Shown in pieces: positions 192 to 13,332 of a stretch of DNA of 58,898 nt. The notes under the pieces were generated by a model. That model had not been told where the DNA came from, did not search any database, and saw only the letters and a program-made list of their open reading frames with translations. The position numbers and the translations under genes were made by a program. The first letter of the stretch is position 1; every line of letters starts with the position of its first letter. The DNA is from an uncultured bacterium (GTDB lineage: Bacteria; Verrucomicrobiota; Verrucomicrobiia; Verrucomicrobiales; DEV007): contig CAXBMO010000032.1 of NCBI GenBank assembly GCA_963977015.1, forward strand, positions 1 through 58,898, in the 5' to 3' direction.

Positions 192-644
192 TCAACCCCA
201 AAGATACCGCTCATCAAAATCGACTTGATACTTCTTCAAGAACTTCAGGTATTCCTCCTGAAAGGTGGTGACCTTGTGATGTTCTTTCTGGTTTCGAAGA
301 TAGCCCATCGCGACGTCAAGATCGGGCGGACTAACGCTGAACCAGCCATACCCCACCTGCCACGCAAACTTCGGACGATCTGAAAAGGTCGAATTGATCC
401 AACGCGACGAGTCGCCTTTCAGTTGGCTCATGAATTCCTGGTCCGCGACCATTTTGGACTCCCTGATCAAGAGGTGGACATGATCCGGCATTCCACCAAT
501 TTCGAGAAGACTCCCTTCCAGCCGTCGGATGATTCCGCCCATGTATTCGTACAACCTGGACTCGATTTCACCAGTAATCATCGGTTCCCGATTCTTCGTG
601 GAGAACACGATGTGTCCATAGGTGCAGTGTAGTGACTGTGGCAT
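192..644 (-). mobile_element. IS200/IS605-type Y1 HUH transposase (REP-associated tyrosine transposase, RAYT)
   Basis: HIVFSTKNR, HUH motif DHVHLL, FAWQxGYG, YLRNQKEHH; flanked by inverted REP-like palindromes. Confidence 0.9.
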
Positions 645-820: not shown

Positions 821-852
821 GGCGGCGAACCTGTTTACGCAGGCCCGCCGCC
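821..852 (-). terminator. GC-rich hairpin just downstream of the TROVE gene (possible terminator)
   Basis: ggcggcg-aa-cctg-tttacg-cagg-cc-cgccgcc hairpin about 17 nt past the stop; T-rich tail on the minus strand. Confidence 0.45.
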
Positions 853-869
853 GGGGTTGAAGGTTCCGA

Positions 870-2303
870 TTAAAGTTCCATCGCTTCGATTTGATGGAGA
901 AGCGCGCTCTTGTCCTTTTCGAGGAACATGAGCGTTTCCATCGTCTTATCCGAAAAGCCTGCGAGCGCGTAAACGCCGCGTTCCGGAAATTGAAGCGATC
1001 CGTAACCAGCCAGATCAAAGCTGTAGACACGAGGACGGTTTCCCGCCTTCTTGACATAAGCTTCGAAGCTTTCGGTTGGCGTATAATATCCCATCCAGCC
1101 CTGCATATCAGAGAGGATAACGACGCGATCGTAAGCCTTCCGAGCCGTTTGGAAGATCGCGTGGAAGTTGGTTCCGGCGAACCGGGCCTTTTCTTCCATG
1201 CGTTGCGCCAGACTCAAGGTGCTATCATCACGGTTGAAGGTCTTGAACTCGGCGATATCGCTGAAGAGCATGAGATCCGCATCGTTGGTCTTGTAAAGGA
1301 CCGATGCAAAGAGCGATCCGATCTTGATCGGATTTCCATGCATGGATCCGGAACTATCCAGCGCGATCAACGTACGACCTTCGAGCACCGGAACATTCTC
1401 CAATGCAAGATCGACAGCCTTACTGAGCGCACGAATCACCTTTTGGCGATTTGGCAAATCAGTCGCCTGTTCCACGGCATCCAGAGCGGTGCGGAAGCGG
1501 AACGGCAGCACGAGCGACTTGCGGATCAACCGCGGATCCTGCAGCAACGCAAGCGCGTCATCGACGACGTCCGGAGACTGTTCGAGGATGTTGCGCAGGT
1601 TGCGAAGCAGCGCGAAGTATCCGATCTTGCGACTACGAATGAGGTCCGCCCAGGCTCCCGCCTTACGACCAGCCTTGTCTTCGGCATTCTCCGCTTGTTG
1701 ACCAGCCTGCGTCAGCTTGGTTTCCCAGGTTTCCGCCGGCTGAAGCGTTCCCGCCATCAACTGCCCCAAAGCTTGGGTGTGCGGAGGGTGAAGCAGGTTC
1801 ACCGCATCCACCAGCTTGAGTTCAGCACCTTCGCGCCGGTACTTGGCCAGTTGGTAGGCATCGAACCGGGTCAGGGCTTGGCCCAATCCCTTCTTGAGAG
1901 AGTTTGGCAAGGGCTTTCCATGGACCGCCATGTGGTAGGCCAGGATTTCGAGAACGTCATCAACGCGGTAGACCACGCGATCGAAGAAGCGACGCGTCCA
2001 ATCGGCACCCTTGACCTGGTGCGCCAGTTCCCCGGCGACCAAGTGGCTGACCGAACGCATCCCTGCTTCACGACGAGCATAAAGCGCCGCCTTCGCGACA
2101 AAAGGCTTGTCGTTGATCTCGCGGATCAGTTCCTGGAGCCGCTTTGCGGAATCACCCGCCTTGCGGTAGTACTGGTTTTCCAGGAAACAGGTGAGGAGCA
2201 TGGTCACCAGTTCGAGCTTGGCGCTCTGGGTGAAGGCCTCGCCACCTGCCAGGTTGATGGTTGTCGATTCTGTTTGCTTTTGTCTTTTCAGATTGAACTT
2301 CAT
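870..2303 (-). CDS. rsr: TROVE-domain Ro60 ortholog with C-terminal vWA domain (Rsr-like)
   Basis: INLAGGEAF, FDAYQLAKY, TWETKLT and ALLRNLRN TROVE motifs; MIDAS DSSGS; GTNF; ILSDMQ. AGGAGG SD lies about 11 nt upstream and Y-RNA-like genes are adjacent. Confidence 0.93.
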   Translation of the reverse strand: MKFNLKRQKQTESTTINLAGGEAFTQSAKLELVTMLLTCFLENQYYRKAGDSAKRLQELIREINDKPFVAKAALYARREAGMRSVSHLVAGELAHQVKGADWTRRFFDRVVYRVDDVLEILAYHMAVHGKPLPNSLKKGLGQALTRFDAYQLAKYRREGAELKLVDAVNLLHPPHTQALGQLMAGTLQPAETWETKLTQAGQQAENAEDKAGRKAGAWADLIRSRKIGYFALLRNLRNILEQSPDVVDDALALLQDPRLIRKSLVLPFRFRTALDAVEQATDLPNRQKVIRALSKAVDLALENVPVLEGRTLIALDSSGSMHGNPIKIGSLFASVLYKTNDADLMLFSDIAEFKTFNRDDSTLSLAQRMEEKARFAGTNFHAIFQTARKAYDRVVILSDMQGWMGYYTPTESFEAYVKKAGNRPRVYSFDLAGYGSLQFPERGVYALAGFSDKTMETLMFLEKDKSALLHQIEAMEL

Positions 2304-2383
2304 GAGGTGGTCGGACCTCCTTTCTAGTTAGGGTTGTTGGAAAACTCCCTTCGCGAGCAACGAAGGAAGAAGTTGAGAAAGGA

Positions 2384-2471
2384 TCGGAGAGAAAACCGGT
2401 CGGGGTAATAGCTCACCCAATGTGGATGAATTCGTTTAACAGACGAAGGAACCCCAACCTCACTACTCCGA
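2384..2471 (-). ncRNA. Y-RNA-like gene 1 (short, YrlB-like)
   Basis: Minus strand: terminal stem TCGGAG/CTCCGA, internal loop TAGTGA / GGTTTTCT, stem GGTTGGGG/CCCCGACC, then TTCCTTCG. Same scaffold as the two neighbouring units; immediately upstream of rsr. Confidence 0.7.
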
Positions 2472-2489
2472 AATGGGTGGAGGGAAAGG

Positions 2490-2632
2490 TCACTCTGGAG
2501 AATGCCGGAAGGAGACACAATACCGTGCTCTACCAACTGAGCTATCTCCCAAGAACCTTGGGAGAGTGGGACTCGAACCCACGACCACGCGCGTCGAAAG
2601 CGAAGGAACTCCTCGCCTCACTGCCAGAGTGA
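2490..2632 (-). ncRNA. yrlA: Y RNA with permuted tRNA-like domain (YrlA-like)
   Basis: Terminal stem TCACTCTGG/CCAGAGTGA. The T-arm GTGGG-TTCGAGT-CCCAC comes before a closed acceptor-like hairpin TCTCCCAAG-GTT-CTTGGGAGA and then a D-arm TA-GCTC-AGTTGGTA-GAGC, the order known for YrlA. Confidence 0.88.
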
Positions 2633-2654
2633 TTTTATTTCCCAGGAAAGAGGT

Positions 2655-2780
2655 CACGCGAAGAATAGTGAACCGGGCAAAGTTGTCCGGTCCAAAAAGG
2701 CGGACCGGGCAGGAGTTGAACCTACTAATCTGAGCGCGTCAGACGTACACCGAAGTATCCCAGATTCTCGCTATCGCGTG
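2655..2780 (-). ncRNA. Y-RNA-like gene 3 (T-arm plus closed acceptor-like stem, no D-arm)
   Basis: Terminal stem CACGCGA/TCGCGTG, TAGCGA / ACTATTCT internal loop, ATACTTCG motif, T-arm GTAGG-TTCAACT-CCTGC, then CCGGTCC/GGACCGG hairpin. Confidence 0.75.
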
Positions 2781-2797
2781 TTTTAAAAAAGGCTGAG

Positions 2798-2868
2798 CAT
2801 CCGAGCATGGATTCGAACCATGATTCTCGCCTTCAAAGGGCGATGTCCTTCCGTTAGACGACTCGGAT
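2798..2868 (-). tRNA. tRNA-Gln(TTG)
   Basis: Acceptor ATCCGAG/CTCGGAT; anticodon arm TCGCC-CTTTGAA-GGCGA; T-loop TTCGAAT; no encoded CCA. Confidence 0.9.
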
Positions 2869-2881
2869 GAAAGAAGAAAAA

Positions 2882-2955
2882 TCGGTCTGGAAGGACTTGC
2901 ACCCTCAACCTGCCGGGTAAGAACCGGATGCTCTCCTAACTTGAGCTACAGACCG
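2882..2955 (-). tRNA. tRNA-Lys(CTT)
   Basis: Acceptor CGGTCTG/CAGACCG; anticodon loop TTCTTAC; T-loop TGCAAGT. Confidence 0.85.
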
Positions 2956-2960
2956 TTGTC

Positions 2961-3011
2961 GTAGCCACGATTGGTAATCGTGGTATGAATTCGAGTGCCA
3001 CTCGAATCTAC
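2961..3011. repeat. GTAG-bounded double-hairpin (REP doublet-like) element, copy 1
   Basis: GTAG-CCACGATT-GGT-AATCGTGG ... ATTCGAGT-GCC-ACTCGAAT-CTAC; second copy at 3748-3799. Confidence 0.8.
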
Positions 3012-3016
3012 AAAGG

Positions 3017-3109
3017 CGGAGCTTTGAGGACTTGCACCCCATGCCTCGTTTTCGCGAGGCACCATTCGTTTAGCAAACGACTCCGACACGCTTGTTCGGT
3101 TAAAACTCC
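3017..3109 (-). tRNA. tRNA-Ser(GCT)
   Basis: Acceptor GGAGTTT/AAGCTCC, G73; loop TTGCTAA; long variable arm TGCCTCG/CGAGGCA; T-loop TGCAAGT. Confidence 0.85.
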
Positions 3110-3124
3110 AATCGAAATACCAAG

Positions 3125-3197
3125 TGCCCGTAGCAGGATTTGCACCTGCACTGAACCGCTTTTGAGTCGGCTGCCTCTGCTGTTGGGCTATACGGGC
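3125..3197 (-). tRNA. tRNA-Leu(CAA), short variable loop
   Basis: Acceptor GCCCGTA/TACGGGC, A73; loop CTCAAAA; 5-nt variable loop; T-loop TGCAAAT. Confidence 0.85.
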
Positions 3198-3214
3198 GTT
3201 TCGTTGCAAAGAAG

Positions 3215-3287
3215 TGCTCACGGAAGGATTCGCACCTTCAACTCCTCGGTTTTAAGTCGAGTGCCTCTGCTCTTGGGCCACGTGAGC
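3215..3287 (-). tRNA. tRNA-Leu(TAA), short variable loop
   Basis: Acceptor GCTCACG/CGTGAGC; loop CTTAAAA; T-loop TGCGAAT. Confidence 0.85.
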
Positions 3288-3298
3288 CTGCTCATTCG

Positions 3299-3374
3299 TC
3301 GACCCGGTGGGAATCGCACCCACGTCCTCTCGCTTATAAGGCGAGCGCTCTCACTGCGCCTGAGCTACGGGTCA
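3299..3374 (-). tRNA. tRNA-Ile(TAT)
   Basis: Acceptor TGACCCG/CGGGTCG; arm CTCGC-CTTATAA-GCGAG; T-loop TGCGATT. Confidence 0.85.
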
Positions 3375-3387
3375 AAAGGTAGAACGG

Positions 3388-3460
3388 TACCCACGACAGG
3401 ATTTGCACCTGCAACCTTCCGCTTCTAAAACGGACGCCTCTGCTATTGGGCTACGTGGGC
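3388..3460 (-). tRNA. tRNA-Leu(TAG), short variable loop
   Basis: Acceptor GCCCACG/CGTGGGT; arm TCCGT-TTTAGAA-GCGGA; T-loop TGCAAAT. Confidence 0.85.
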
Positions 3461-3480
3461 CAATGTCAATTTGATGAACG

Positions 3481-3554
3481 TTCCACCGGTCGGTGTCGCA
3501 CCGACATGGTCTCCTTTACGAGAGGAGTGCATTGCTGACTTCTGCCACGGTGGA
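3481..3554 (-). tRNA. tRNA-Thr(CGT)
   Basis: Acceptor TCCACCG/CGGTGGA; arm CTCCT-CTCGTAA-AGGAG; T-loop TGCGACA. Confidence 0.85.
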
Positions 3555-3571
3555 TAAATGGAGTTTGTAGG

Positions 3572-3644
3572 CACTCCCGGTAGGACTCGAACCTACAACC
3601 TGATGCTTCGAAGGCACCCGCTCTTCCAATTGAGCTACAGGAGC
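3572..3644 (-). tRNA. tRNA-Arg(TCG)
   Basis: Acceptor GCTCCTG/CGGGAGT; arm GGTGC-CTTCGAA-GCATC; canonical D-loop GG and T-loop TTCGAGT. Confidence 0.92.
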
Positions 3645-3662
3645 GAAAAGAAATCTAATCAA

Positions 3663-3747
3663 TACGGGATGGAGGATTCGAACCCCTCGACAGCCAACCC
3701 ACAGTTTATGGTCGACACGTTAGAAGCATGTGGTGGGAACATCCCGC
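3663..3747 (-). tRNA. D-armless tRNA-like RNA, anticodon TCT (Arg)
   Basis: 8-bp acceptor GCGGGATG/CATCCCGT; no D-arm; arm ACATG-CTTCTAA-CGTGT; expanded variable region; 4-bp T-stem with TTCGAAT loop. Confidence 0.7.
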
Positions 3748-3799
3748 GTAGCCACGACTGGTAGTCGTGGTTTGAAATTCGAGTCCCACTCGAATCTAC
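3748..3799. repeat. GTAG-bounded double-hairpin (REP doublet-like) element, copy 2
   Basis: GTAG-CCACGACT-GGT-AGTCGTGG ... ATTCGAGT-CCC-ACTCGAAT-CTAC; compensatory T:A to C:G change relative to copy 1. Confidence 0.8.
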
Positions 3800-3810
3800 G
3801 ACTAAAAAAA

Positions 3811-3881
3811 TAGGGGCTGAAGGTAACGCTCCCTCGTCTCCTGTGTGTAAAACAGGCGTCCTACTATTGAACGAAGCCCCC
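3811..3881 (-). tRNA. tRNA-Val(TAC)
   Basis: Acceptor GGGGGCT/AGCCCCT; arm CCTGT-TTTACAC-ACAGG; T-loop AGCGTTA. Confidence 0.85.
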
Positions 3882-3904
3882 ATCACTATGATCATGTGAG
3901 GAAG

Positions 3905-3978
3905 TATCCCGGGAGGGATTTGCACCCCCAACCTCTGCGCACTCAACACAGCGCCTCTGCTGATTGGGCTACCGGGAC
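3905..3978 (-). tRNA. tRNA-Leu(GAG), short variable loop
   Basis: Acceptor GTCCCGG/CCGGGAT; arm CTGTG-TTGAGTG-CGCAG; T-loop TGCAAAT. Confidence 0.83.
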
Positions 3979-3980
3979 AT

Positions 3981-4052
3981 TGGGGCCAACGGCGAGTCTC
4001 TCACTCGCATCTTCCGACTTACAAGGTCGGCGCACTTCTCTGCCACGCTGGC
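3981..4052 (-). tRNA. tRNA-Thr(TGT), CCA encoded
   Basis: Acceptor GCCAGCG/CGTTGGC-C-CCA; arm CCGAC-CTTGTAA-GTCGG; T-loop TGAGAGA; small D-arm. Confidence 0.82.
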
Positions 4053-4069
4053 GTCTCAAAAGAAAGCGG

Positions 4070-4141
4070 TGCGCCGTGCCGGTGCTGCCCCGGCTCCTCC
4101 TGTTTGGAAGACAGACGTCCTAGCTGGTAGACGAACAGCGC
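4070..4141 (-). tRNA. tRNA-Gly(TCC)
   Basis: Acceptor GCGCTGT/ACGGCGC; arm TCTGT-CTTCCAA-ACAGG; T-loop GGCAGCA. Confidence 0.83.
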
Positions 4142-4155
4142 TTCAAGGTGAAAGA

Positions 4156-4229
4156 ATGCCCGTGCGGGAATCGCACCCGCCACACTCTGGGTTGCAACCA
4201 GGCCGGTTCACTAGCTCCGGTCACGGGCG
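4156..4229 (-). tRNA. tRNA-Cys(GCA)
   Basis: GCCCGT/ACGGGC acceptor with U73; loop TTGCAAC; T-loop TGCGATT. Confidence 0.8.
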
Positions 4230-4243
4230 TCTTCCGAGAAAGG

Positions 4244-4316
4244 GTTGATCGACGGGATTTGCACCCGCACCGCAACCTTCACAGGGTCGAATGCTAACAT
4301 TTACACTACGATCAAC
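4244..4316 (-). tRNA. tRNA-His(GTG)
   Basis: G-1:C73 present; acceptor TTGATCG/CGATCAA; arm CGACC-CTGTGAA-GGTTG; T-loop TGCAAAT. Confidence 0.87.
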
Positions 4317-4345
4317 ATCTCTGGATTCAATACCACTACCAAGAG

Positions 4346-4416
4346 TCCCCCCGGTGGGTAACGCTCCCACTTCTGCGGTTTAAAAGACCGCTGCATCACT
4401 TTAATGCTTCGAGGGA
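4346..4416 (-). tRNA. tRNA-Lys(TTT)
   Basis: Acceptor TCCCTCG/CGGGGGG; arm GCGGT-CTTTTAA-ACCGC; T-loop AGCGTTA. Confidence 0.85.
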
Positions 4417-4436
4417 AGAAGTGATGGATTTCTACC

Positions 4437-4507
4437 TATCCCCGCCAGGATTTGCACCTGATCCGACGCCTTCGCACGACGCCATGCTTCTCTTACACTA
4501 CAGGGAC
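4437..4507 (-). tRNA. tRNA-Arg(GCG)
   Basis: Acceptor GTCCCTG/CGGGGAT; arm GCGTC-GTGCGAA-GGCGT; T-loop TGCAAAT. Confidence 0.8.
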
Positions 4508-4530
4508 AACTCCATTCGCTACCGCCAAAA

Positions 4531-4601
4531 CGCCTCATGCCGGTTACGCTCCGACTCAACCTGTTCGACAGACAGGCAGGCTACTATTACATCAATGAGG
4601 C
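4531..4601 (-). tRNA. tRNA-Asp(GTC)
   Basis: Acceptor GCCTCAT/ATGAGGC, G73; arm CCTGT-CTGTCGA-ACAGG; T-loop AGCGTAA. Confidence 0.83.
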
Positions 4602-4613
4602 TTGTTGAAGAAG

Positions 4614-4685
4614 TGGCTGGCTCCGGAATTGCACCGGGCTCTCGTCGCCTTCAACGACACGCTAATCTGTCTCAGCTATCCAGCC
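4614..4685 (-). tRNA. tRNA-Phe(GAA)
   Basis: GGCTGG/CCAGCC acceptor; arm TGTCG-TTGAAGG-CGACG; T-loop TGCAATT. Confidence 0.8.
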
Positions 4686-4700
4686 TTTGAATTCCCGAAA

Positions 4701-4771
4701 TCGTCCTGGATGGTAACGCTCCACCGTCTACCGGTTATCAACCGGTTGCTCTGCTTTTGAGCTACAGGACG
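4701..4771 (-). tRNA. tRNA-Ile(GAT)
   Basis: Acceptor CGTCCTG/CAGGACG; arm ACCGG-TTGATAA-CCGGT; T-loop AGCGTTA. Confidence 0.87.
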
Positions 4772-4782
4772 CGAAAGAAAGG

Positions 4783-4854
4783 CACCTCCGCTTGGACTCG
4801 AACCAAGCTCGCGAGGCTTAACAGGCCTGCTGCACACCCGGTGCATTCGAAGGT
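4783..4854 (-). tRNA. tRNA-Asn(GTT)
   Basis: Acceptor ACCTTCG/CGGAGGT, G73; loop CTGTTAA; T-loop TTCGAGT. Confidence 0.85.
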
Positions 4855-4862
4855 CAAAGAAG

Positions 4863-4937
4863 ACTCGGGGGCGGGAATCGAACCCGCGTGAAAGGCGGCT
4901 TATGAGGCCCCTTCGAGACGCCAACGCTCTCCCCGAA
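4863..4937 (-). tRNA. tRNA with CAT anticodon (Met, atypical D-arm and anticodon stem)
   Basis: Acceptor TTCGGGG/CCCCGAG; loop CTCATAA; T-arm GCGGG-TTCGATT-CCCGC. Confidence 0.75.
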
Positions 4938-4962
4938 GAATGGAAATGTTCGAACCAAGATA

Positions 4963-5054
4963 CGGGCCACGGAGGTCCTGCCCCCCAAACGCAGGACTAC
5001 TGCGTTCAATCCGTTTTCAAGACGGTTCCGGCACGCTTGTCCGGTTCGGGACCC
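4963..5054 (-). tRNA. tRNA-Ser(TGA)
   Basis: Same unusual D region as Ser(GCT) (CCGGACAAGCGTGCCGG); loop CTTGAAA; long variable arm AACGCAG/CTGCGTT; T-loop GGCAGGA; G73. Confidence 0.78.
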
Positions 5055-5076
5055 ATGTCTCTTTGGTTGTGAAAGG

Positions 5077-5162
5077 TAGGTCCTGGTGGAATCGCACCAC
5101 GCGTCGACTTTCGGCTTCTTTTATGACAACGGTTTTACAGACCGCCAGCCGAGGCAGGACCT
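5077..5162 (-). tRNA. D-armless tRNA-like RNA, anticodon GTA (Tyr)
   Basis: 8-bp acceptor AGGTCCTG/CAGGACCT, A73; no D-arm; arm GCGGT-CTGTAAA-ACCGT; expanded variable region; 4-bp T-stem GTGG-TGCGATT-CCAC. Confidence 0.75.
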
Positions 5163-5175
5163 ATGTGAAAGAAAT

Positions 5176-5251
5176 TGGCAAGGCGTGGGGGAATTGAACC
5201 CGCCGTTCCCAGACTGAAAACCTGGTGTCCTAGCCATTAGACGAACGCCTC
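5176..5251 (-). tRNA. tRNA-Glu(TTC), CCA encoded
   Basis: Acceptor GAGGCGT/ACGCCTT-G-CCA; arm CCAGG-TTTTCAG-TCTGG; T-loop TTCAATT. Confidence 0.88.
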
Positions 5252-5268
5252 ATTTGGAAAAATGGAAA

Positions 5269-5336
5269 TGGGAGGTCCTGGTAACGCTCCAGGCATCCAG
5301 GGTTATGAGCCCCGGGGCAGAACTTTCTGACCTCCA
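5269..5336 (-). tRNA. Initiator-like tRNA-Met(CAT) with miniature D-arm
   Basis: 1:72 mismatch (T/C), GGAGGT/ACCTCC acceptor, three G-C pairs next to the CTCATAA loop, D-arm reduced to CAGA-AAGT-TCTG, T-loop AGCGTTA. Confidence 0.72.
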
Positions 5337-5350
5337 ATCTGCTGATTGCG

Positions 5351-5424
5351 TCGCGGTGGTAGGACTCGCACCTACTTCCTGAGACTTCCAAGGTCCCTAT
5401 CTCGACTACTTCGACCTCACCGCG
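5351..5424 (-). tRNA. tRNA-Pro(TGG)
   Basis: Acceptor CGCGGTG/CACCGCG, A73; arm GGGAC-CTTGGAA-GTCTC; T-loop TGCGAGT. Confidence 0.85.
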
Positions 5425-5434
5425 AAAACTGGTA

Positions 5435-5507
5435 TGGAGACACTCGGTAACGCTCCGAGTCCTGCTGCTTGCAAGGCAGCCGTGCTATCTTTTATCACTA
5501 TGCCCCC
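5435..5507 (-). tRNA. tRNA-Ala(TGC)
   Basis: Acceptor GGGGGCA/TGTCTCC with the G3:U70 identity pair; arm GCTGC-CTTGCAA-GCAGC; T-loop AGCGTTA. Confidence 0.88.
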
Positions 5508-5513
5508 AAAGAA

Positions 5514-5590
5514 TGGCAGACTGCGAGAGAATCGAACTCTCTAAGCGCAAGGTTTGGAATCTTGCCGCGACACCCACTCGCCGACAGTCT
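5514..5590 (-). tRNA. tRNA-Trp(CCA), CCA encoded
   Basis: Acceptor AGACTGT/GCAGTCT-G-CCA; loop TTCCAAA; T-arm GAGAG-TTCGATT-CTCTC. Confidence 0.82.
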
Positions 5591-5612
5591 GCATTGATAC
5601 TTCTTTCCACAA

Positions 5613-5797
5613 TTCTCTGAAGCATGAAGGGAACTTCCAAGCCTGACGATTCATCACGGATTCTTCACGCGTGAACCCATGTGATTTAGAAGCGGCATGC
5701 TGTTGAGCGCGCCGCCGTTTCAATATTTGGATTTGGGTTCCGGGAAGAGGAAGGATGGAATCGAACTGATGATCCGTTCTACCTTCGCTTCAGAGAA
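5613..5797 (-). ncRNA. Unassigned ~185-nt structured RNA (possibly a long Y-type RNA)
   Basis: Long closing helix TTCTCTGAAGC-GAAGG-TA-GAAC / GTTC-CCTTC-AT-GCTTCAGAGAA; internal helices GAACCCA/TGGGTTC and GCGGCGCGCT/AGCATGCCGC. Confidence 0.6.
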
Positions 5798-5800
5798 AGA

Positions 5801-5942
5801 CGAACACCGTTACCGATCGTTACTCGGTAGCCGCAGGTTTTCACAGACGGACGTTTCGGTGTCTAACAGGCACACCTCCCTTACATAGAAGCCTCTTGGG
5901 TTGCCATTCCCAAGAGACAAACACTTTCCGTAACACGATTCG
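5801..5942 (-). ncRNA. Unassigned ~140-nt structured RNA candidate
   Basis: Hairpin GTCTCTTGGG/CCCAAGAGGC (its G-U wobble works only on the minus strand), ACACCG/CGGTGT, TACCGA/TCGGTA; ends partly complementary. Confidence 0.4.
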
Positions 5943-6057
5943 AAAATGGTGTGATCCGGTTGACCAAGTTGAAGACTTGTATAAATTAGAAACTTGTAGG
6001 TGAGCTAATCTATCAGGCTTCCCCTTTCGGGAGAACTTGGTAAGGTTTGCCTCTCTG

Positions 6058-6112
6058 GCCTGTTCTTGAGGTTGGATCAGTTGCCGCTGACCGCCTCGGG
6101 AACGGGCTTTTT
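6058..6112 (+). terminator. Plus-strand hairpin plus T5 (possible terminator of an antisense transcript)
   Basis: GCCTGTTCTTGAGG/CCTCGGGAACGGGC, 14 bp with three G-U pairs that form only on the plus strand, followed by TTTTT. Confidence 0.45.
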
Positions 6113-6211
6113 AATGGCTATGTCTAATTGATTGATTGATTAATGAATTGGTTCGTCAGTTGATGAGATCAAAAATTCCTTTCTTGCTGATTTTAAGAGA
6201 GTTACAGGACA

Positions 6212-6245
6212 CAAAAAACCCTGCCTCGGGGATGAGAGCAGGGTT
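6212..6245 (-). terminator. Intrinsic terminator between leader ORF and RNA array (attenuator)
   Basis: Minus strand AACCCTGC-TCTCATCCCCGAG-GCAGGGTT-TTTTGT. Confidence 0.8.
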
Positions 6246-6292
6246 CACGTCAAAAAAACTGGGTAGTATTCTCGTTACGTAAACCGCCTCTC
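6234..6292 (-). promoter_or_regulatory. Candidate antiterminator helix
   Basis: GAGAG-GC-GGTTTACGT (6292-6277, last leader codons) pairs with ACGTGAACC-CTG-CTCTC (6250-6234, terminator 5' arm and loop). Confidence 0.65.
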
Positions 6293-6466
6293 TTTGGGTT
6301 CATCACCACTACGGTATCCCAGATGATTCTGGGCAAAAATGGCGACTGTCTCTCCTTTTGCATCCCACTTTGTCCGGGGCAAAATCCATCCCGCGATGAG
6401 ACACGATGTCTCCCGCTGAGGCAATGCTGCCTGCATTGGTATGGTTCTGTTGTTGGAGAATGACAT
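6275..6466 (-). CDS. Putative leader peptide (63 aa) of the tRNA/Y RNA/rsr operon
   Basis: ATG about 40 nt after the -10 box; the stop codon overlaps the antiterminator strand; terminator about 30 nt downstream. No obvious SD. Confidence 0.55.
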   Translation of the reverse strand: MSFSNNRTIPMQAALPQRETSCLIAGWILPRTKWDAKGETVAIFAQNHLGYRSGDEPKERRFT

Positions 6467-6506
6467 TGAAATTGAAAGCTAAAGTATTGCTCTTGTTCTG
6501 CGGGTG

Positions 6507-6535
6507 ACCTTAGCACTGAACAATACGATTGTCAA
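6507..6535 (-). promoter_or_regulatory. sigma70-type promoter for the leader/tRNA array
   Basis: Minus strand TTGACA (6535-6530), 17-nt spacer, TAAGGT (6512-6507) preceded by TGn; AT-rich upstream. Confidence 0.75.
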
Positions 6536-6715
6536 CCCTCTACTATTTCTATTTTCTCCTAACACTACCATCCTACTATATTATTTGAGAGCTTTCCGGT
6601 TTACACATTCCCCTGCAAACGGCATCAACGGTGCGGTATCCGATCATCTCCCCAGCCAGGGAGCATTTGAAAACGATGACGGACGCGCACGTTGTTCCTC
6701 TTTCTCAAACGCCGC

Positions 6716-7426
6716 CTAACCCTTCTTCCAAATCTTCAAATCGTCCACCACCGCATTCCGGGGAACGGCGAGACGCAGCATCCGCTTGGTGGGATGCGCG
6801 ATGCCCTCGGATTCGAAACTGCCAACTTCTTCCCCGTCGATGCTCACCATCAATTTGGATCCGTCAATCTGAACGACCAGGTCATGCCATTCTCCGGTCT
6901 CCAGCGAAGCCGGAACTTTTTTCTGTTTCCCTTTCAGCATCTCCACCTGCTCATTGCTGAGCGTTTTCGCCTGCCGGGCCTCACGAATCTTGAGATCCAT
7001 GCTCCCGGTCTTCAGATCCTGGAGCAAGACGTATTTCGGAAAGACCCGAACGGCAAAGAGGTGACCGGCGTGAACCTCCTTGAACTTCAGATCGGCAAAA
7101 TTGAGGCCCAGACTGTCTTTGGCATCTTCCAACATGAACCGCAGCGTGACCGCTCCATTCGTGAACTCGGCAGGTTGGGTCACGGATACGCCGTGGTCCG
7201 CCGTTTCATGAAGGTAGATGTACATGGCCCCGTCCCGGAGATCGACCTGCTTGTTCCCGTTGGCCCGTTTCGCGGAATTGGTCCCCCAGCCATTGCCGGG
7301 TTCATCCTTCACTTCCTGCGATTCTGATCGTTCAAAATCGTCTTCGAAAATGACCTTACCATAGTCATCAGCCAAGAGGACGGAAGAGGCAACCAACGAG
7401 AGAAAGCATACGGAACGTAGTGTCAT
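6716..7426 (-). CDS. Secreted hypothetical protein, concanavalin/LamG-like beta-sandwich
   Basis: Signal peptide, IFEDDFER start, WHDLVVQIDG motif; last gene of a sulfatase cluster. Confidence 0.7.
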   Translation of the reverse strand: MTLRSVCFLSLVASSVLLADDYGKVIFEDDFERSESQEVKDEPGNGWGTNSAKRANGNKQVDLRDGAMYIYLHETADHGVSVTQPAEFTNGAVTLRFMLEDAKDSLGLNFADLKFKEVHAGHLFAVRVFPKYVLLQDLKTGSMDLKIREARQAKTLSNEQVEMLKGKQKKVPASLETGEWHDLVVQIDGSKLMVSIDGEEVGSFESEGIAHPTKRMLRLAVPRNAVVDDLKIWKKG

Positions 7427-7491
7427 TCCGCAGATATAGAGAGAATCGGCAAGCATGCCAAGCCCGGAAATCGCGGGCTCGCGAACTGGCT

Positions 7492-8880
7492 CTAAGACTT
7501 ACGCTCTTCGGAAAAAACGTCGCCGGTTGGTTCGGGCGGCAACGTCGCCTTCCACTCCTCCAGCTTGCGCAGCAATTCCTGAACTTGTTCGGGGTTCTCC
7601 TCTTTCAGATCGGACTTCTCCATCGGATCCGCCACCAGGTCGTAGAGCTCGACATAGCTGCCATCCCCGTTGGAGAGCAACTTCCACTTCTGATCGACCA
7701 TCGCGAACGAAACCCAGTGAAACGGTTTGTGGGGCTGAGCCGGCCAGGGCGACTGCGATTTCCAAAAAAGCGGCTTCCCGCGTTCCGCAACCGGGGTTCC
7801 CGTCAGGACGTCGAGCTGATTGATTCCGTCAGGCTGATAGTCGGCCGGCAACTCGACTCCGGCGATTTCGCAAAACGTCGGAAGCAAATCCACGGCAGAA
7901 ATCAGCGAGGTGTTGTCGATCGCTCCCGGAGCGATCTTCCCCGGCCAGCGCGCAATGAACGGCACATTGATCCCGCCTTCAAACAAGGCCGCCTTGTAGC
8001 CCTTTCGTCCGGCTGTGATTCCTTTTGCCGCACCAATTCCCCAGCCTGCGCCCGTCGCCGTATCATACCCCAAGGTGAGCTCGGTTGGTTTCGACGCCCG
8101 CGCGGGACCGTTGTCCGAGCTGAAGATCACCAACGTGTTCTCGCTGACCCCTAACCGGTCCAGCGCATCCAAGACCTTACCAATGCGATCGTCCGCATGC
8201 GACAACACGGACGCGTAAATCTTGTCCGCCTCACTCTCCATATCCCGGAATCGCCACTCATACTTGGGCACCGTGTGGAAGGGCGTGTGAGGTTCGTGCA
8301 CCCACAGGTTCACGAAAAATGGCTTCTCCGCAGCCACGCTTTCCTCGATGAAATCGATTGTGTGCATCGCATCCTCATGAACCGGCATCTGCTCTCCCGA
8401 ACAATTGAACGCCCCATAGGCATCATAGCCGTAGTCGCCTGGCGCCGGCGAATCCGGAATCATGTTGTTCGCCAAATGCCACTTCCCAAAGTGAGCCGTG
8501 CGATAGCCGGCGGTCTGCAGGAAGCGCGGCAGCGTTGGCGCTTCGGGATCCAGCCAATCCGGCATTCCCCGCTTCGCATTGCTCGGCACCCAGGCAAAGT
8601 GGCCATCGATATTGTAGCGTGCCGGAAAATGTCCCGTCATCACCGCCGTCCGGCTCGGCGAACAAACTCCGCTGGCAACGGTGAAGCGATGGAAGTCCGT
8701 TCCCTCCCTCGCCAATCGATCGATGTTGGGCGTCTTGACATAGGGATGCCCGTGACAGCTCAAGTCTCCCCACCCCCAATCATCCGCAAAGATGAAGACG
8801 ATGTTGGGCTTGGCGGACTCGGCCCCGAGATTCCCCAACAAAATGGCAAGGAACAGAAAACTGATGACGTTTGATTTCAT
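7492..8880 (-). CDS. Sulfatase (formylglycine-dependent, S1)
   Basis: KPNIVFIFADD, CSPSR, GKWHL, SSDNG. Confidence 0.95.
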   Translation of the reverse strand: MKSNVISFLFLAILLGNLGAESAKPNIVFIFADDWGWGDLSCHGHPYVKTPNIDRLAREGTDFHRFTVASGVCSPSRTAVMTGHFPARYNIDGHFAWVPSNAKRGMPDWLDPEAPTLPRFLQTAGYRTAHFGKWHLANNMIPDSPAPGDYGYDAYGAFNCSGEQMPVHEDAMHTIDFIEESVAAEKPFFVNLWVHEPHTPFHTVPKYEWRFRDMESEADKIYASVLSHADDRIGKVLDALDRLGVSENTLVIFSSDNGPARASKPTELTLGYDTATGAGWGIGAAKGITAGRKGYKAALFEGGINVPFIARWPGKIAPGAIDNTSLISAVDLLPTFCEIAGVELPADYQPDGINQLDVLTGTPVAERGKPLFWKSQSPWPAQPHKPFHWVSFAMVDQKWKLLSNGDGSYVELYDLVADPMEKSDLKEENPEQVQELLRKLEEWKATLPPEPTGDVFSEERKS

Positions 8881-8906
8881 GAGTAGAGTCGAAAGTTGGT
8901 ATGGGG

Positions 8907-10475
8907 TTAGCTTCCCTGAACTCCGGTGTATTCGGCTTCCGTGATCCAGCCCAAATCCTTCCAGTATCCCGTGTCATTTTTCTGCAATGGTCCGGGCGTG
9001 GTGCGCCCCTGCAGAATGATCGCGGTGATTTTCTCCTGCAACTGCCGCGCCCTGTCGGCTTGCTTCTCGGCGAGATTCACTTCTTCGGCGGGATCGGCAG
9101 CCAGATCATACAGCTCCAACGGATGTTTCTTATCCGGAAGAATCAGTTTCCAACTCCCTTCGGTGATGGAGTAGCGCCGGTCATTACCGTGGTTGATCAG
9201 AGGTGCGCGCTCGGCACTGGACGAGGGATCACCTAACACAGCCGCAAAACTCTGGCTGTCTTCCCCGGCATCTTCCGGCAACGACGCTCCGACCAGCTCG
9301 GCAAACGTCGCCAACAGATCCGTCTGTCCAACGATCCGGTCCCACCGCCGCCCCGGCTCCTTGATTCCACCGGGCCAACGCACAAAAAACGGCACCCGGT
9401 GCCCGCCCTCGTAAACCGAGCGCTTGCCTTCCCGAAAACCGCCTCGGCTGTCGTGATTGAATTCCGGGATCCGCTCCCGCCACGAGTTCTCCGGACCATT
9501 GTCACTCGTGTAAACAATCATCGTGTCCTCATCCAAACCCGCCGCGTCCAGGAATTTGAGAATCCGCCCCACATGATGGTCGGTCTCGATCACAAACTCA
9601 CCATACGCGCCAGCCTCGCCCTTGCCGTGAAACTCGGGCAACGGACAAATTGGATAGTGGGGAGACGTATACGGCAGATAAAGAAAGAAGGGTGTCCCGC
9701 TCTTTGCTCCCTCCGCCTTGCCGGTCATCCACTCAATCGCCTTATCGGTAAACCGCGTCAGACATTCGTTATCGACAAAATCGGGCGCAACCTCCATCCC
9801 CGGCCGTCCCAGCGCCTCTTTCGTCTCGCCCGGCGTTTGCTCGTAAGGCGGCATGATCCGATAATCGCTCGCCCGCGCATTCTTCTTCTTATTGGTATAG
9901 AGCGTCGGCGGAACCTTCGCGTGGCGTCCTTCAAACCACGCCAGAATACCGTAGTTGAGCGAAGCCGGGATCCCGTAAAAATAGTCAAACCCTTTGTCCA
10001 ACGGCATATCCTGAACCGGTTTGGACCAATCCCGGGTTTTCGGCGTTCCCGGGAAGTCCATTCCCAAATGCCATTTCCCGACCATGGCGGTGGCATAGCC
10101 CTCCCCTTTCAGCAGCGACGCCAGGGTCATTCTGCCATCCTCGATCAGGCAGGCAGTCTCCGCTCCAAACACCCCGGACTTCAGAGTCGTTCGCCACGAA
10201 TACCTCCCCGTCAGCAAGCCATAGCGGGAAGGGGTGCAGACGGAATCCGAGCTGTGGCCATTGGTGAAGGAGATTCCCTCGTTGGCCAGCCGATCGAGGT
10301 TGGGAGTTTCGAATCGCGCATCAGGATTCAACACACTGGCATCTCCAAATCCCTGATCATCCGTGTAGATCACGATGATGTTGGGTCTCGTCGCAGCAGC
10401 ATTCGAAAACTGTGCCAGGGCGAGGGAAACGGCAAACAGGATGCCGGACAACAGAAGTGGGGGCTTTCTAAACAT
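8907..10475 (-). CDS. Arylsulfatase (S1)
   Basis: RPNIIVIYTDDQG, CTPSR, GKWHLG, TSDNG; start placed at MFRKPP (signal peptide). Confidence 0.93.
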   Translation of the reverse strand: MFRKPPLLLSGILFAVSLALAQFSNAAATRPNIIVIYTDDQGFGDASVLNPDARFETPNLDRLANEGISFTNGHSSDSVCTPSRYGLLTGRYSWRTTLKSGVFGAETACLIEDGRMTLASLLKGEGYATAMVGKWHLGMDFPGTPKTRDWSKPVQDMPLDKGFDYFYGIPASLNYGILAWFEGRHAKVPPTLYTNKKKNARASDYRIMPPYEQTPGETKEALGRPGMEVAPDFVDNECLTRFTDKAIEWMTGKAEGAKSGTPFFLYLPYTSPHYPICPLPEFHGKGEAGAYGEFVIETDHHVGRILKFLDAAGLDEDTMIVYTSDNGPENSWRERIPEFNHDSRGGFREGKRSVYEGGHRVPFFVRWPGGIKEPGRRWDRIVGQTDLLATFAELVGASLPEDAGEDSQSFAAVLGDPSSSAERAPLINHGNDRRYSITEGSWKLILPDKKHPLELYDLAADPAEEVNLAEKQADRARQLQEKITAIILQGRTTPGPLQKNDTGYWKDLGWITEAEYTGVQGS

Positions 10476-10525
10476 GGTTGTGGGAATAAAGGGCAGGGTT
10501 AGGAAATTGGCCAGCGTGAGAGGGG

Positions 10526-11830
10526 TTAGCCCAACAACTCGGGAATGTTTCCGGTGCTGTGACTGAAGTGGTCCACCTCTACTCCACCTTCCTGCATCAA
10601 CGTGAGCCAGTAGTTGGCCAACGGGGTGTCTTTCTTGGGAAGAACGAGATGGCGACCATGCTTGATCCGTTTTGCTCCACCACCGGAGAGGATCGCAGGC
10701 AGACCTTTCAACTCGTGACCGGAACGAAGGTTCGTTCCATAGCTGACGATACACTGATCATAGAGACGGCTACCGTCACTATCCCTGGCCTCCTTGAGGC
10801 GATCCAGAAAATGCGCGAACAATCCCGAACACTTCTGGTCCCGCTCGCGCGAGGCTGCCTTGCGTGGCTCGGAGAATCCGTAGTGACTCAACGAGTGCGC
10901 CTTGAGCTGGATCCCCATTCCCTCAAGAACCGAGCAAACCGGTTGGCGATAGGAGATAACCCGAGTCGAGTCGGTCTGGAGAGCCGCAATGATGATGTCA
11001 TACATCACGCGAATTTCTTCTTCGCCCGTGATTCCCTGGGTCGGGGCTTCGAAGGGAGCTTCCGGCTTCGGAATATCCGCCCACTCCGCTTGTCGTTCCA
11101 GGCTCTGCTCGATCTGACGCACCCCTTGAAAATACTCGTCGAGCTTCTCTTGATCGCCTTTGCTCAACACCCGCCTCATCGATCCGCCATCCAGCCTGAC
11201 AACATCCAGAATACTCTGCTTCTTGCGCAACGCCGCGTCGAGTTCCGCTCGCGAATCCGTTTTCTGGGCAAAGACGGCGTGATAAAGCTCAAGCGGTTGC
11301 GCAAAGCCGGGAAGCGGGTTGCCGGAATCGTCCCACGCCAGCGAAAGGCCTTTGCCGTGTCCTGAATTCTGTCCTCCATCGGATTCTTTGCTCGTCAAAA
11401 CCAGGGACGAGTATCGCGTTTCATGGCCAAGATGTTTCGCCGCAAATTGATCGCAGGATATGGAGTTGAAGAAGCGTTTCCCCGCCGTTCCCGAAACATT
11501 CGCACCCGTCAGATAGGAGACACTGCCCCCGTGAGGATCCGTCGCTCCCAGGTTCGTGAGATTCGCGACCATCGTGATATCGTCCTGATGACGCTTCAAC
11601 GGCATCAAACCTTCGGTGAGCCCGATCTCCGAAAATCGCCCCTCCTCGGTCGGGAAAAACGTTTCCTTGGTAAAACCGAACCCGCCACCAAGGAAGATCA
11701 TCCGCTTTGGCGGCGTCACGGAAGTCGATGCGGCGGTGGCAAACGTTTCGAGAAACGGAAGTGCGAGGCAATATCGGCCGGCCCGAAAAAACGAGCGGCG
11801 AGTTTGGGAGTTGGAGATGAACTGACTCAT
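10526..11830 (-). CDS. DUF1552 family protein (Tat-like leader)
   Basis: RRSFFR...LALPFLE, ISCDQ, ALQTDSTRV, HSLSH, PLANYWLT. Confidence 0.9.
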   Translation of the reverse strand: MSQFISNSQTRRSFFRAGRYCLALPFLETFATAASTSVTPPKRMIFLGGGFGFTKETFFPTEEGRFSEIGLTEGLMPLKRHQDDITMVANLTNLGATDPHGGSVSYLTGANVSGTAGKRFFNSISCDQFAAKHLGHETRYSSLVLTSKESDGGQNSGHGKGLSLAWDDSGNPLPGFAQPLELYHAVFAQKTDSRAELDAALRKKQSILDVVRLDGGSMRRVLSKGDQEKLDEYFQGVRQIEQSLERQAEWADIPKPEAPFEAPTQGITGEEEIRVMYDIIIAALQTDSTRVISYRQPVCSVLEGMGIQLKAHSLSHYGFSEPRKAASRERDQKCSGLFAHFLDRLKEARDSDGSRLYDQCIVSYGTNLRSGHELKGLPAILSGGGAKRIKHGRHLVLPKKDTPLANYWLTLMQEGGVEVDHFSHSTGNIPELLG

Positions 11831-11858
11831 GTGATGGGAATGTTAGGCCGTAAATGGT

Positions 11859-13316: not shown

Positions 13317-13332
13317 TGAAAGGGGGTTTGAG

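Follow-up and report, generated by a model that had tools for sequence, protein, structure and literature searches.

A probably phage-related tRNA array with an alternative elbow, joined to Y-like RNA and Ro60 genes in Verrucomicrobiota

Why should a bacterium keep a second, nearly complete set of tRNA genes directly beside a gene for the Ro60 protein? The question is raised by a stretch of 58,898 nucleotides from an uncultured member of the Verrucomicrobiales (GenBank assembly GCA_963977015.1, contig CAXBMO010000032.1), which was analysed as a whole and is called the window below; it is an entire 58.9-kb contig (C32) of a metagenome-assembled genome of 6.9 Mb in 51 contigs. All elements in question lie on its minus strand, in the 5′ to 3′ order leader RNA (5789-5902), some 30 arrayed tRNA genes, three Y-like RNAs, and rsr, which encodes a Ro60/TROVE protein. 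Together they form a single conserved, co-oriented unit with two to three Y RNAs, one of them YrlA-type, and both its anatomy and its conservation are well supported. An initial annotation, made from the sequence alone, had already described a tightly packed, same-strand unit of a supernumerary tRNA set, Y-like RNAs and rsr, and this was borne out. We interpret the unit as a phage-related, HNH-linked and horizontally spreading tRNA array that has been joined to genes of RNA repair and quality control and that would serve backup translation, a reading to which we give a probability of about 0.6.

The size of the array depends on the stringency of the search. ARAGORN at default settings called 18 tRNA genes between 2797 and 5590, all on the minus strand, and 17 array tRNAs reached the Rfam gathering score. 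A relaxed-threshold run, as had been proposed with the initial annotation, gave 25 array tRNAs at ps90, to which Pro and Tyr were added at ps80 (Pro passes Rfam too). The claim of about 30 genes is therefore a fair one, since 27 members are supported by programs and three more elements were recognized by eye (Table 1). Rescanning the gaps between the tRNAs at ps60 yielded noise in the wrong orientation only, and the tRNA-Gly(UCC)-like element was matched neither by ARAGORN at this setting nor by Rfam. Program calls cover 19 amino acids and Gly is represented by the by-eye element only, so that the earlier statement of 30 tRNAs for all 20 amino acids holds for the gene number and, for full coverage, only if the Gly element is accepted. 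The array member previously called initiator-like has U1-G72 on inspection, not C1xA72. In terms of density, 25 genes (ps90), or 27 with Pro and Tyr, are co-oriented within 2.8 kb; a tRNA array unit has been defined by a minimum of 20 tRNA genes and a density of no less than 2 per kb (PMC4758250; here and below, statements on cited articles refer to the passages available from them).

Relative to the tRNA genes of its host, this array is supernumerary and foreign. Elsewhere the genome contains 41 dispersed tRNAs and a transfer-messenger RNA; the host tRNAs carry a UUCRA T-loop in 40 of 41 cases and GG in the D-loop in all 41. Array tRNAs share 53–71% identity with the best host tRNA of the same amino acid, and five anticodons (Arg GCG, Arg UCG, Leu GAG, Ile UAU and Lys CUU) are exclusive to the array. 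In agreement with the initial annotation, CCA is encoded in only three array tRNAs (Trp, Glu and Thr-UGU), compared with 16 of the 41 host tRNAs.

U55 (as pseudouridine) and G18 are regarded as near-universal in tRNA. In the window, a UUCRA T-loop is found in just six array genes (Trp, Glu, Met-4862, Asn, Arg-UCG and Gln), and the remaining T-loops are of the UGCRA, AGCGU or related types; most array tRNAs thus lack the combination of U54-U55-C56 and G18G19 that marks a canonical elongator. The four array tRNA-Leu, at 74-75 nucleotides against 82-85 for the host tRNA-Leu, also lack the class II form. These features recur in a wider scan of 80 genome loci, which together with the window make 81 sources. 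At least three non-canonical T-loops were present in 54 of these, ranging from the Verrucomicrobiales to Chthoniobacter and including the cultured Chthoniobacter flavus Ellin428, Prosthecobacter fluviatilis and Brevifollis gellanilyticus. The 54 sources contain 950 array tRNAs with 7-nucleotide T-loops on the rsr strand, of which 756 have G and 187 have U at position 55, and 926 have C at position 56. The D-loop follows position 55: GG occurs in 181 of the 187 U55 tRNAs but in only 54 of the 756 G55 tRNAs, 669 of which have AG without GG. As the loci were chosen by the feature itself, the share of G55 is inflated, which does not apply to its coupling with the D-loop. Positions 54:58 are U:A in 662, A:U in 150, C:A in 53 and G:G in 28 tRNAs, with A:A (15) and U:U (14) being rare. 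The length is 80 nucleotides or less in 134 of 135 array tRNA-Leu, and long arms are kept by Ser (33/37) and Tyr (24/28). About 80% of the array tRNAs therefore share a systematic alternative elbow, in which G55 is coupled to the loss of G18G19. Across the phylum, a pattern of adjacent G55 T-arms was detected in 10 of 401 sampled genomes and in none of the control.

Such departures could be taken as signs of decay, that is, of a horizontally acquired pseudogene cluster that lies beside rsr by chance. The limited yield at ARAGORN default (18 of about 30) and at the Rfam gathering score (17) would fit this explanation, some relatives retain 0-2 tRNAs, and Kim et al. 2016 read similar clusters as partly degraded (PMC4807772). 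We nevertheless regard it as disfavoured and very improbable, since the departures are systematic and coupled in 54 of 81 sources, the stems covary and identity elements are kept. Among 38 sequences of tRNA-His, 96.9% of cells are paired, with double changes at 17 of 21 pairs; none of 500 shuffles equalled the real pairing, and slid controls gave 31-48%. For the class I tRNA-Leu(UAA), the corresponding values from 26 sequences are 98.1% and 15 of 20 pairs. These paired percentages are inflated, as ARAGORN prefers cloverleaves, but this bias does not create compensatory changes between orthologs. The pattern argues for strong purifying selection on the array tRNAs.

The identity marks point in the same direction. 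G3:U70 is present in 39 of 40 array tRNA-Ala, compared with GU at 3:70 in 11 of the 921 other array tRNAs (961 in total). Discriminators fitting the bacterial rules were found for Cys (U, 19/20), Asp (G, 23/24), Asn (G, 40/45), Leu (A, 120/135), Ser (G, 28/37) and Tyr (A, 23/28), and the D-arm is invariant among the array Leu isoacceptors. Anticodon and synthetase marks should be coupled only in RNAs that become charged and take part in decoding. The array genes encode genuine tRNAs under selection, which can probably be aminoacylated. This bears directly on the proposal that the G55-type RNAs act outside translation, either by drawing off nucleases that target tRNAs, as decoys or sponges, or by serving Rsr, the Y RNAs and RtcB as ligand or substrate. 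The altered elbow does remove the U54, U55 and G18 modification sites, and the Y RNA YrlA is itself a tRNA mimic partnering Rsr (PMC4201824). Yet G3:U70 confined to Ala, isotype-specific discriminators and D-arms would not be expected of such RNAs, and arrays persist in the absence of Rsr (see below), which makes this proposal most unlikely in our view.

Where does the array come from? Its tRNAs belong to a lineage that is common in arrays on phage contigs. In a viral collection, whose own classification provides the viral label (the open reading frame (ORF) list of one locus, L292, was uninformative), at least 134 stretches with two adjacent G55 T-arms were detected. Figures were derived from 80 of them, some of which overlap on the same contig: 47 of the 80 loci have at least 10 tRNAs, and homologs of HNH, Rsr and RtcB occur at 28, 5 and 5 loci, respectively. 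On contigs of 131-275 kb, 35-37 of the 37-42 tRNAs called per locus are of the UGCRA (G55) type, and tRNA-Leu is class I. The elbow coupling is found here as well, with D-loop GG in 380 of 410 U55 tRNAs versus 63 of 416 G55 tRNAs. Separately, Rsr relatives with 44-56% identity are present on 80 viral-collection loci, a few of which have upstream arrays, mostly canonical ones. One contig of this collection (L102, 5945-9354) carries, in an array beside an Rsr relative, seven tRNAs with a UCCGA (C55) T-loop together with UGCRA and canonical types, so that position 55 can also be C.

The rsr product of the window likewise has its nearest solved structure in a phage protein, the Ro60 of Thermus phage phiLo (9KOP/9L5Y; E = 5e-23, nearly full length), with residues 9-464 covered and, in the alignment to 9L5Y, D-S-S-G-S placed against D-V-S-G-S; Rsr of D. 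radiodurans (2NVO) is a far weaker match (E = 3e-7). The assignment of rsr as a TROVE gene, made earlier, was confirmed by PF05731 at E = 6e-21 (75.5 bits against a cut-off of 23), and the Ro60 von Willebrand factor A (vWA) model PF25045 scored 20.7 bits, under its cut-off of 27.7. Orthologs across Verrucomicrobiota share 60-84% identity. The earlier remark that no phage or mobile gene is adjacent is misleading in this light, as an IS200-like transposase gene lies at 192-644, the nearest Ro60 structure is from a phage and arrays on viral contigs are filled by tRNAs of this type.

These relations raise the possibility of selfish cargo: a phage or mobile module whose tRNAs serve the element itself, for instance in counter-defence against host immunity that cleaves tRNAs or in codon supply during infection, the chromosomal copies being remnants or prophage parts of little use. 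The abundance of G55 arrays with HNH on viral contigs, the 80 viral loci with Rsr relatives, the patchy distribution, the decayed copies and the IS200-like gene beside the unit are in line with this, and an anti-defence role has been proposed for tRNA arrays (PMC12803027). Against it stand the flanks of the window, which are sulfatase genes and in which no phage structural genes were noticed, although no search was aimed at them, and the leader RNA, which occurs in 61 Verrucomicrobial sources but matches only 3 of 81 viral-collection sources. In addition, a ZnuA gene 5-9 kb upstream in many loci of the group with 60-63% identity, including Prosthecobacter and Brevifollis, fits long vertical residence, and the purifying selection on the chromosomal copies is strong. 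Combined, these points leave selfish cargo as a possible but unlikely account.

This leads back to the reading of a phage-related array that has been joined to RNA repair and quality control, and to the make-up of the unit in relatives. A match to Rsr was found in 37 of 134 family genomes, a count that includes the genome of the window, a few fragments and distant paralogs. At the loci of full-length orthologs, 22 of 28 have at least five tRNA genes, mostly directly upstream and on the same strand. Of the other six, four have a contig end within 1.3 kb upstream, and two have 0 and 2 tRNAs despite upstream DNA; the distant TROVE paralogs (27-31% identity) have no array alongside. The linkage of tRNA array and rsr, the absence of which from other genomes had been named as a ground for abandoning the initial annotation, is thus conserved across Verrucomicrobiota. 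When the ORFs of 75 loci were clustered, the recurrent genes after rsr were those of an HNH-domain protein (51 loci), RtcB (23), RlaP (17), Band7 and two unknown proteins. The view that the system replaces rather than repairs tRNAs consequently fails for the family. In the window RtcB is absent, and the only RtcB match of the genome, on contig C2, shares 31% identity with the RtcB of the relatives. RtcR was not among the recurrent neighbour clusters, although no search was aimed at it.

In the window, rsr is followed only by the IS200-like gene and then by the contig end. Contig C19 of the same genome opens with the last 67 residues of an HNH protein that is 91% identical to the one encoded directly after rsr in the same genus, suggesting that the two contigs are neighbours. 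The HNH gene of the unit thus probably continues on C19, behind the IS200-like insertion and the contig break.

The core pattern of the leader is present as a single copy in 37 of 134 family genomes (reversed control, 0), of which 16 have no Rsr ortholog. Twelve Rsr-less leader loci were examined, one of them being too short. In 10 of the 11 informative loci, the leader is followed by a G55-type array of 0-21 tRNAs and by HNH, without any match to Rsr, and in some of them Band7 and RlaP come after HNH. Rsr and the Y RNAs, which had been taken as a fixed part of the system, are therefore optional.

The head of the array is formed by the leader RNA. It was found by blastn at 36 loci and is 80-92% identical across dozens of loci. 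Its consensus fold from 35 sequences (RNAalifold) is a three-way junction, in which helix P1 (AACACC, or GACACC in the window, with GGUGUU) and the 5′ segment GGGAGGUGUGCC are near-invariant, P2 is formed by CCGY and GCGG, and P3, a covarying hairpin, is variable; a U-rich tract comes next. Compensatory changes were observed at 8 of 21 pairs, in P2 and in P3. The covariance model R1 built for this RNA scores 81.5 bits in the window and gives one match each in 61 of the 98 sources (E-values of 1e-14 down to 3e-34), 26 of the 61 lying outside the seed, and no match in the non-Verrucomicrobial loci among the 98. A strict regular expression for the leader matches the genome once, on C32. The position relative to the array is equally constant, with 689 tRNAs downstream of the leader and 3 upstream at 38 loci. 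No Rfam 15 model matched the leader of the window or of locus L184 at E ≤ 10, and attempts to fit a hammerhead, T-box or ZTP structure by eye failed. Since the ACACC strand of P1 has a second possible partner in the 5′ GGUGU, and P1 is followed by a stretch rich in U, a function as attenuator or riboswitch, and thus as a candidate new regulatory RNA, is plausible on evidence that is still thin.

Two further observations concern the surroundings of the leader. At loci L231, L234, L235 and L238 (with HNH) and L206 (with rsr), the leader and the downstream gene are kept and 0-2 tRNAs were called in between; the leader may therefore matter for downstream protein genes too. In the window, the approximately 200 nucleotides between the leader and the first tRNA (5591-5788, minus strand) contain a weak malK-III match (E = 0.027 to 0.26, far below the gathering score) and a poor tRNA-like call.

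With the conserved head of the unit placed at 5789-5902, the promoter, leader ORF and attenuator that had originally been proposed as its head can be judged. The string TTGACA-17-TAAGGT is present at 6535-6507, but it does not stand out in a promoter scan (4 sites versus 2.9 expected); a consensus scan of the minus strand upstream of the array gave nothing convincing, and the bases preceding the leader, inspected by eye, did not match a sigma54-like promoter. The proposed leader ORF has a 30-residue tblastn match in the same-genus locus L146 and a weak, chance-level one in L105 (E = 0.098), with nothing else significant in the loci searched or in the genome and no Pfam match. It thus lacks a conserved homolog, and the region 6333-6760 cannot be aligned even within the genus. 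A hairpin and U-run are indeed visible at 6245-6212 and to this extent the postulated terminator exists, but it is not conserved, and its place is upstream of the conserved leader. Rather than attenuating the array, it probably closes the transcription unit that precedes.

These results also decide about the original explanation, a host operon that replaces rather than repairs tRNAs, driven by a sigma70 promoter near 6535, controlled by leader-peptide attenuation (ORF 6516-6250 and terminator) and with Rsr and Y RNAs as obligate parts. The strings for promoter, ORF and terminator do exist, the array is supernumerary and nearly complete, its linkage with Rsr is frequent, and the L-array of Anabaena is induced by stress (PMC8421152). 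On the other side, the promoter fails the scan, the ORF and its surroundings are unconserved within the genus, the conserved leader lies elsewhere, relatives carry RtcB and RlaP, and 10 of 11 Rsr-less loci keep the leader, the remaining array and HNH. In this specific form, the explanation is decidedly unlikely.

The reading of a backup array joined to repair genes has its own weak points. Besides the choice of loci by the feature itself and the preference of ARAGORN for cloverleaves mentioned above, several observations weigh against it. Three array members as well as the Gly assignment are known by eye only, and an AGA/AGG-reading tRNA was not established in the array, so that decoding may be incomplete. 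The bacterial discriminator of tRNA-Gly is U73, and in the 54 related sources A73 was found in 33 of 38 tRNA-Gly; among 38 tRNA-His, 15 carry G-1 and 17 carry C73. The A73 of tRNA-Gly and the scarcity of G-1:C73 in tRNA-His mean that charging by host enzymes is not assured for every member. The T-loop classes could reflect paralogy, with duplication followed by anticodon change, instead of selection for a special elbow. The unit is patchy, occurring in about 28% of the family genomes, and the five loci with 0-2 tRNAs indicate that the array is dispensable. As for the leader, its helix P1 is without any double changes and its fold energy is no better than that of shuffles (z = +0.56).

Between the array and rsr, the three structured Y-like RNAs of the initial annotation were recovered, with folding z-scores from -2.9 to -3.4. 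They share a terminal stem, an internal loop (5′ YAGYGAG, 3′ UUUUCU) and a UNCUUCG hairpin, and they sit 80-480 nucleotides upstream of rsr as candidate ligands of Rsr. RNA B contains the core of YrlA, composed of T-arm, closed acceptor hairpin and D-arm. Here the suggested comparison with Rfam gave a divided answer: positions 24-84 of 114 of the YrlA model RF02553 match at 2524-2589 with E = 2.6e-7, and the whole-model score of 39.6 bits falls short of the gathering score (69), as the outer stem, the Ro-binding part of the model, is unmatched. RNA B lies about 190 nucleotides upstream of the rsr start, well inside the distance of 4 kb from rsr that Chen et al. 2014 applied to YrlA (PMC4201824). 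No Rfam match was obtained for RNA A. A regular expression for the YrlA core motif has at least one match in 81 of 161 related loci, judging by the listed positions mostly a few hundred bases upstream of rsr. A pattern for the shared Y module gave 103 matches in 63 of 72 related upstream regions, compared with a single match on the reverse complement and 0-4 matches among 20 shuffles; this is a relaxed version, which catches only RNA C in the window, where a stricter expression missed all of the RNAs. The strong Shine-Dalgarno sequence formerly assigned to rsr exists as GGAGG, but it lies 12 nucleotides from the ATG within a small hairpin. As GGAGG can pair with ACCUC just before the rsr start, the ribosome-binding site may be occluded.

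From this anatomy, a course of events can be sketched. Transcription would start upstream of the leader, which would probably gate read-through. The transcript would be processed into a self-sufficient second tRNA pool, and Rsr and the Y RNAs, in relatives also RlaP, RtcB and Band7, would be made simultaneously. Translation could then go on, and damaged RNA could be handled, during an attack on the housekeeping tRNAs or while translation is disturbed. We infer this stress-rescue function from the genetic context, and its beneficiary could be the host or the mobile or phage element. A bolder version can be formulated, which we put forward tentatively and hold to be doubtful. Here, the array would be a parallel working tRNA set, with A18-G55 in place of G18-Psi55, interchangeable U54:A58 and A54:U58 and class I tRNA-Leu, widespread in phages and domesticated in Verrucomicrobiota. 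The leader, with its near-perfect Shine-Dalgarno-like invariant 5′ part, would sense the state of translation as a riboswitch or attenuator and switch on the pool together with Rsr, the Y RNAs and the repair enzymes, and the altered elbow would hide the tRNAs from elbow-reading enzymes or toxins. The outcome would be an emergency form of translation beyond the reach of agents that attack normal tRNAs.

The unit combines known kinds of elements, namely a tRNA array of the L type, Rsr together with Y RNAs, and neighbouring genes for RNA repair. L-arrays are reported from Verrucomicrobia and Planctomycetes among other phyla, are linked to HNH and, in Anabaena, are induced by translational stress (PMC8421152); tRNA arrays with HNH are also reported from Mycobacterium (PMC12803027). 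Like the L-arrays of Mycobacterium and the trn operon of Anabaena PCC 7120, the array of the window has at least 20 co-oriented tRNAs at far above 2 per kb, is supernumerary to a dispersed housekeeping set, patchy and probably HNH-associated. In contrast to L-arrays as described in these passages, it has its own leader RNA, the G55/AG elbow, class I tRNA-Leu, and Y RNAs with rsr downstream. The arrangement of a TROVE/putative vWA gene with tRNA-mimic Y RNA immediately upstream is shared with the Salmonella rsr-yrlBA-rtcBA locus (PMC7790460), and RtcB is adjacent in 23 of the related loci. Unlike in Salmonella, the window has no adjacent RtcB, RtcA or RtcR and a full tRNA array lies upstream, the Y RNA stays below the Rfam gathering score, and the protein is nearer to phage Ro60 than to D. 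radiodurans Rsr.

A combination of TROVE gene and tRNA cluster is also known from archaea, where 20 of 29 tRNA gene clusters have a TROVE gene, beside HNH and transposase genes (PMC6333295, Morgado and Vicente 2019); the available text of that account mentions no Y RNAs, leader or T-loop analysis. Within the Planctomycetes-Verrucomicrobia-Chlamydiae superphylum, degenerate tRNA gene clusters of 2-28 low-scoring tRNAs have been described in Planctomycetes (Kim et al. 2016), in which a tRNA-Ile(UAU), canonical-looking there, is confined to the cluster as it is to the array here. The passages available from this description name neither a TROVE linkage nor systematic T-loop classes. Jumbo phages carry tRNA sets with RtcB, RlaP and occasionally a TROVE protein (PMC7824862; RlaP is treated in PMC12776372). 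Compared with these, the copy in the window is chromosomal and flanked by sulfatase genes, and the leader is found in just 3 of 81 viral sources. In the literature searched, neither G55-type arrays nor the leader nor an operon of this layout was encountered, which is not proof of absence, and G55 does not occur as a term in the T-loop review PMC7912444. Three features were accordingly not found described: the coupled G55/AG elbow, the universal class I tRNA-Leu and the leader RNA.

Both in a whole phylum of bacteria and on numerous phage contigs, hundreds of tRNA genes thus swap position 55 and position 18 in a coupled way. Should these tRNAs prove active, the constraints on the elbow, on recognition by leucyl-tRNA synthetase and on modification by TruB, TrmA and TrmH would be looser than assumed, and a large class of genuine tRNAs would be dismissed as pseudogenes by annotation pipelines. 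In addition, tRNA arrays, Ro60/Y RNA quality control and RtcB/RlaP repair, which are usually studied apart, are physically linked in this unit. The cultured carriers allow joint testing of what bacterial Ro60/Y RNAs and cryptic tRNA arrays do, a question that has long been open.

Table 1. Features of the unit and its surroundings in the window, in order of position.
Feature	Position	Strand	Basis or remark
IS200-like (Y1_Tnp) transposase ORF	192-644	-	Pfam PF01797, E = 9e-26; one copy in the assembly
GC-rich terminator-like hairpin directly after the rsr stop	821-852	-	terminator scan: 13 pairs, 10 GC
rsr, Ro60/TROVE protein, 477 residues, candidate C-terminal vWA domain with DxSxS (MIDAS-type) motif	870-2303	-	Pfam TROVE
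GGAGG ribosome-binding site	2304-2320	-	12 nucleotides before ATG, within a 5-bp hairpin; listed on the + strand as 2304-2319
Y-like RNA C: terminal stem, conserved internal loop, CGAA-containing hairpin	2384-2471	-	fold of 2304-2480, z = -3.2
Y-like RNA B, YrlA-type: permuted tRNA-like core inside terminal stem	2490-2632	-	fold of 2478-2650, z = -3.4
Y-like RNA A: terminal stem around T-arm-like hairpin and closed hairpin	2655-2780	-	fold of 2645-2796, z = -2.9
tRNA array, about 30 genes	2797-5590	-	ARAGORN, Rfam, 3 by eye
Array genes 1-10 (5′ to 3′): Trp, Ala, Pro, Met, Glu, Tyr, Ser-UGA-like, Met, Asn, Ile-GAU			
Array genes 11-20: Phe, Asp, Arg-GCG, Lys-UUU, His, Cys, Gly-UCC, Thr-UGU, Leu-GAG, Val			
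Array genes 21-30: unassigned, Arg-UCG, Thr-CGU, Leu-UAG, Ile-UAU, Leu-UAA, Leu-CAA, Ser-GCU, Lys-CUU, Gln			
Double-hairpin insert, 55-59 nucleotides, between tRNA genes	2956-3014	-	second copy at 3747-3799
Degenerate tRNA-like element, canonical T-loop, isotype unassigned	3663-3747	-	by eye
tRNA-Gly(UCC)-like element, T-loop GGCAGCA	4070-4141	-	by eye
Class II tRNA-Ser(UGA)-like element	4963-5054	-	by eye; no ARAGORN ps60 call in that orientation
Conserved leader RNA at array head, about 115 nucleotides	5789-5902	-	blastn, RNAalifold, covariance model
Hairpin (8 bp, 13-nucleotide loop) and U-run	6212-6245	-	sequence
Proposed leader ORF, 88 residues from GTG or 63 from ATG	6250-6516	-	unsupported as a gene

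Upstream of the unit, 6716-13370 on the minus strand encodes a LamG/3-keto-disaccharide-hydrolase-like protein, three sulfatases and a DUF1552 protein, an ordinary polysaccharide-degradation context in which no phage genes were noticed. The double-hairpin insert has its two copies in the array and one partial copy elsewhere in the genome, and none in related loci; it looks like a small lineage-specific insertion, because the contig of a close relative omits exactly 2956-3012. These few copies also led us to reject a genome-wide repetitive extragenic palindromic element tied to the IS200-like gene. The IS200-like gene itself is a neighbour between rsr and the expected HNH gene and stands outside the conserved unit. 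The hairpin region that follows the rsr stop shares 82% identity with the same-genus locus L146.

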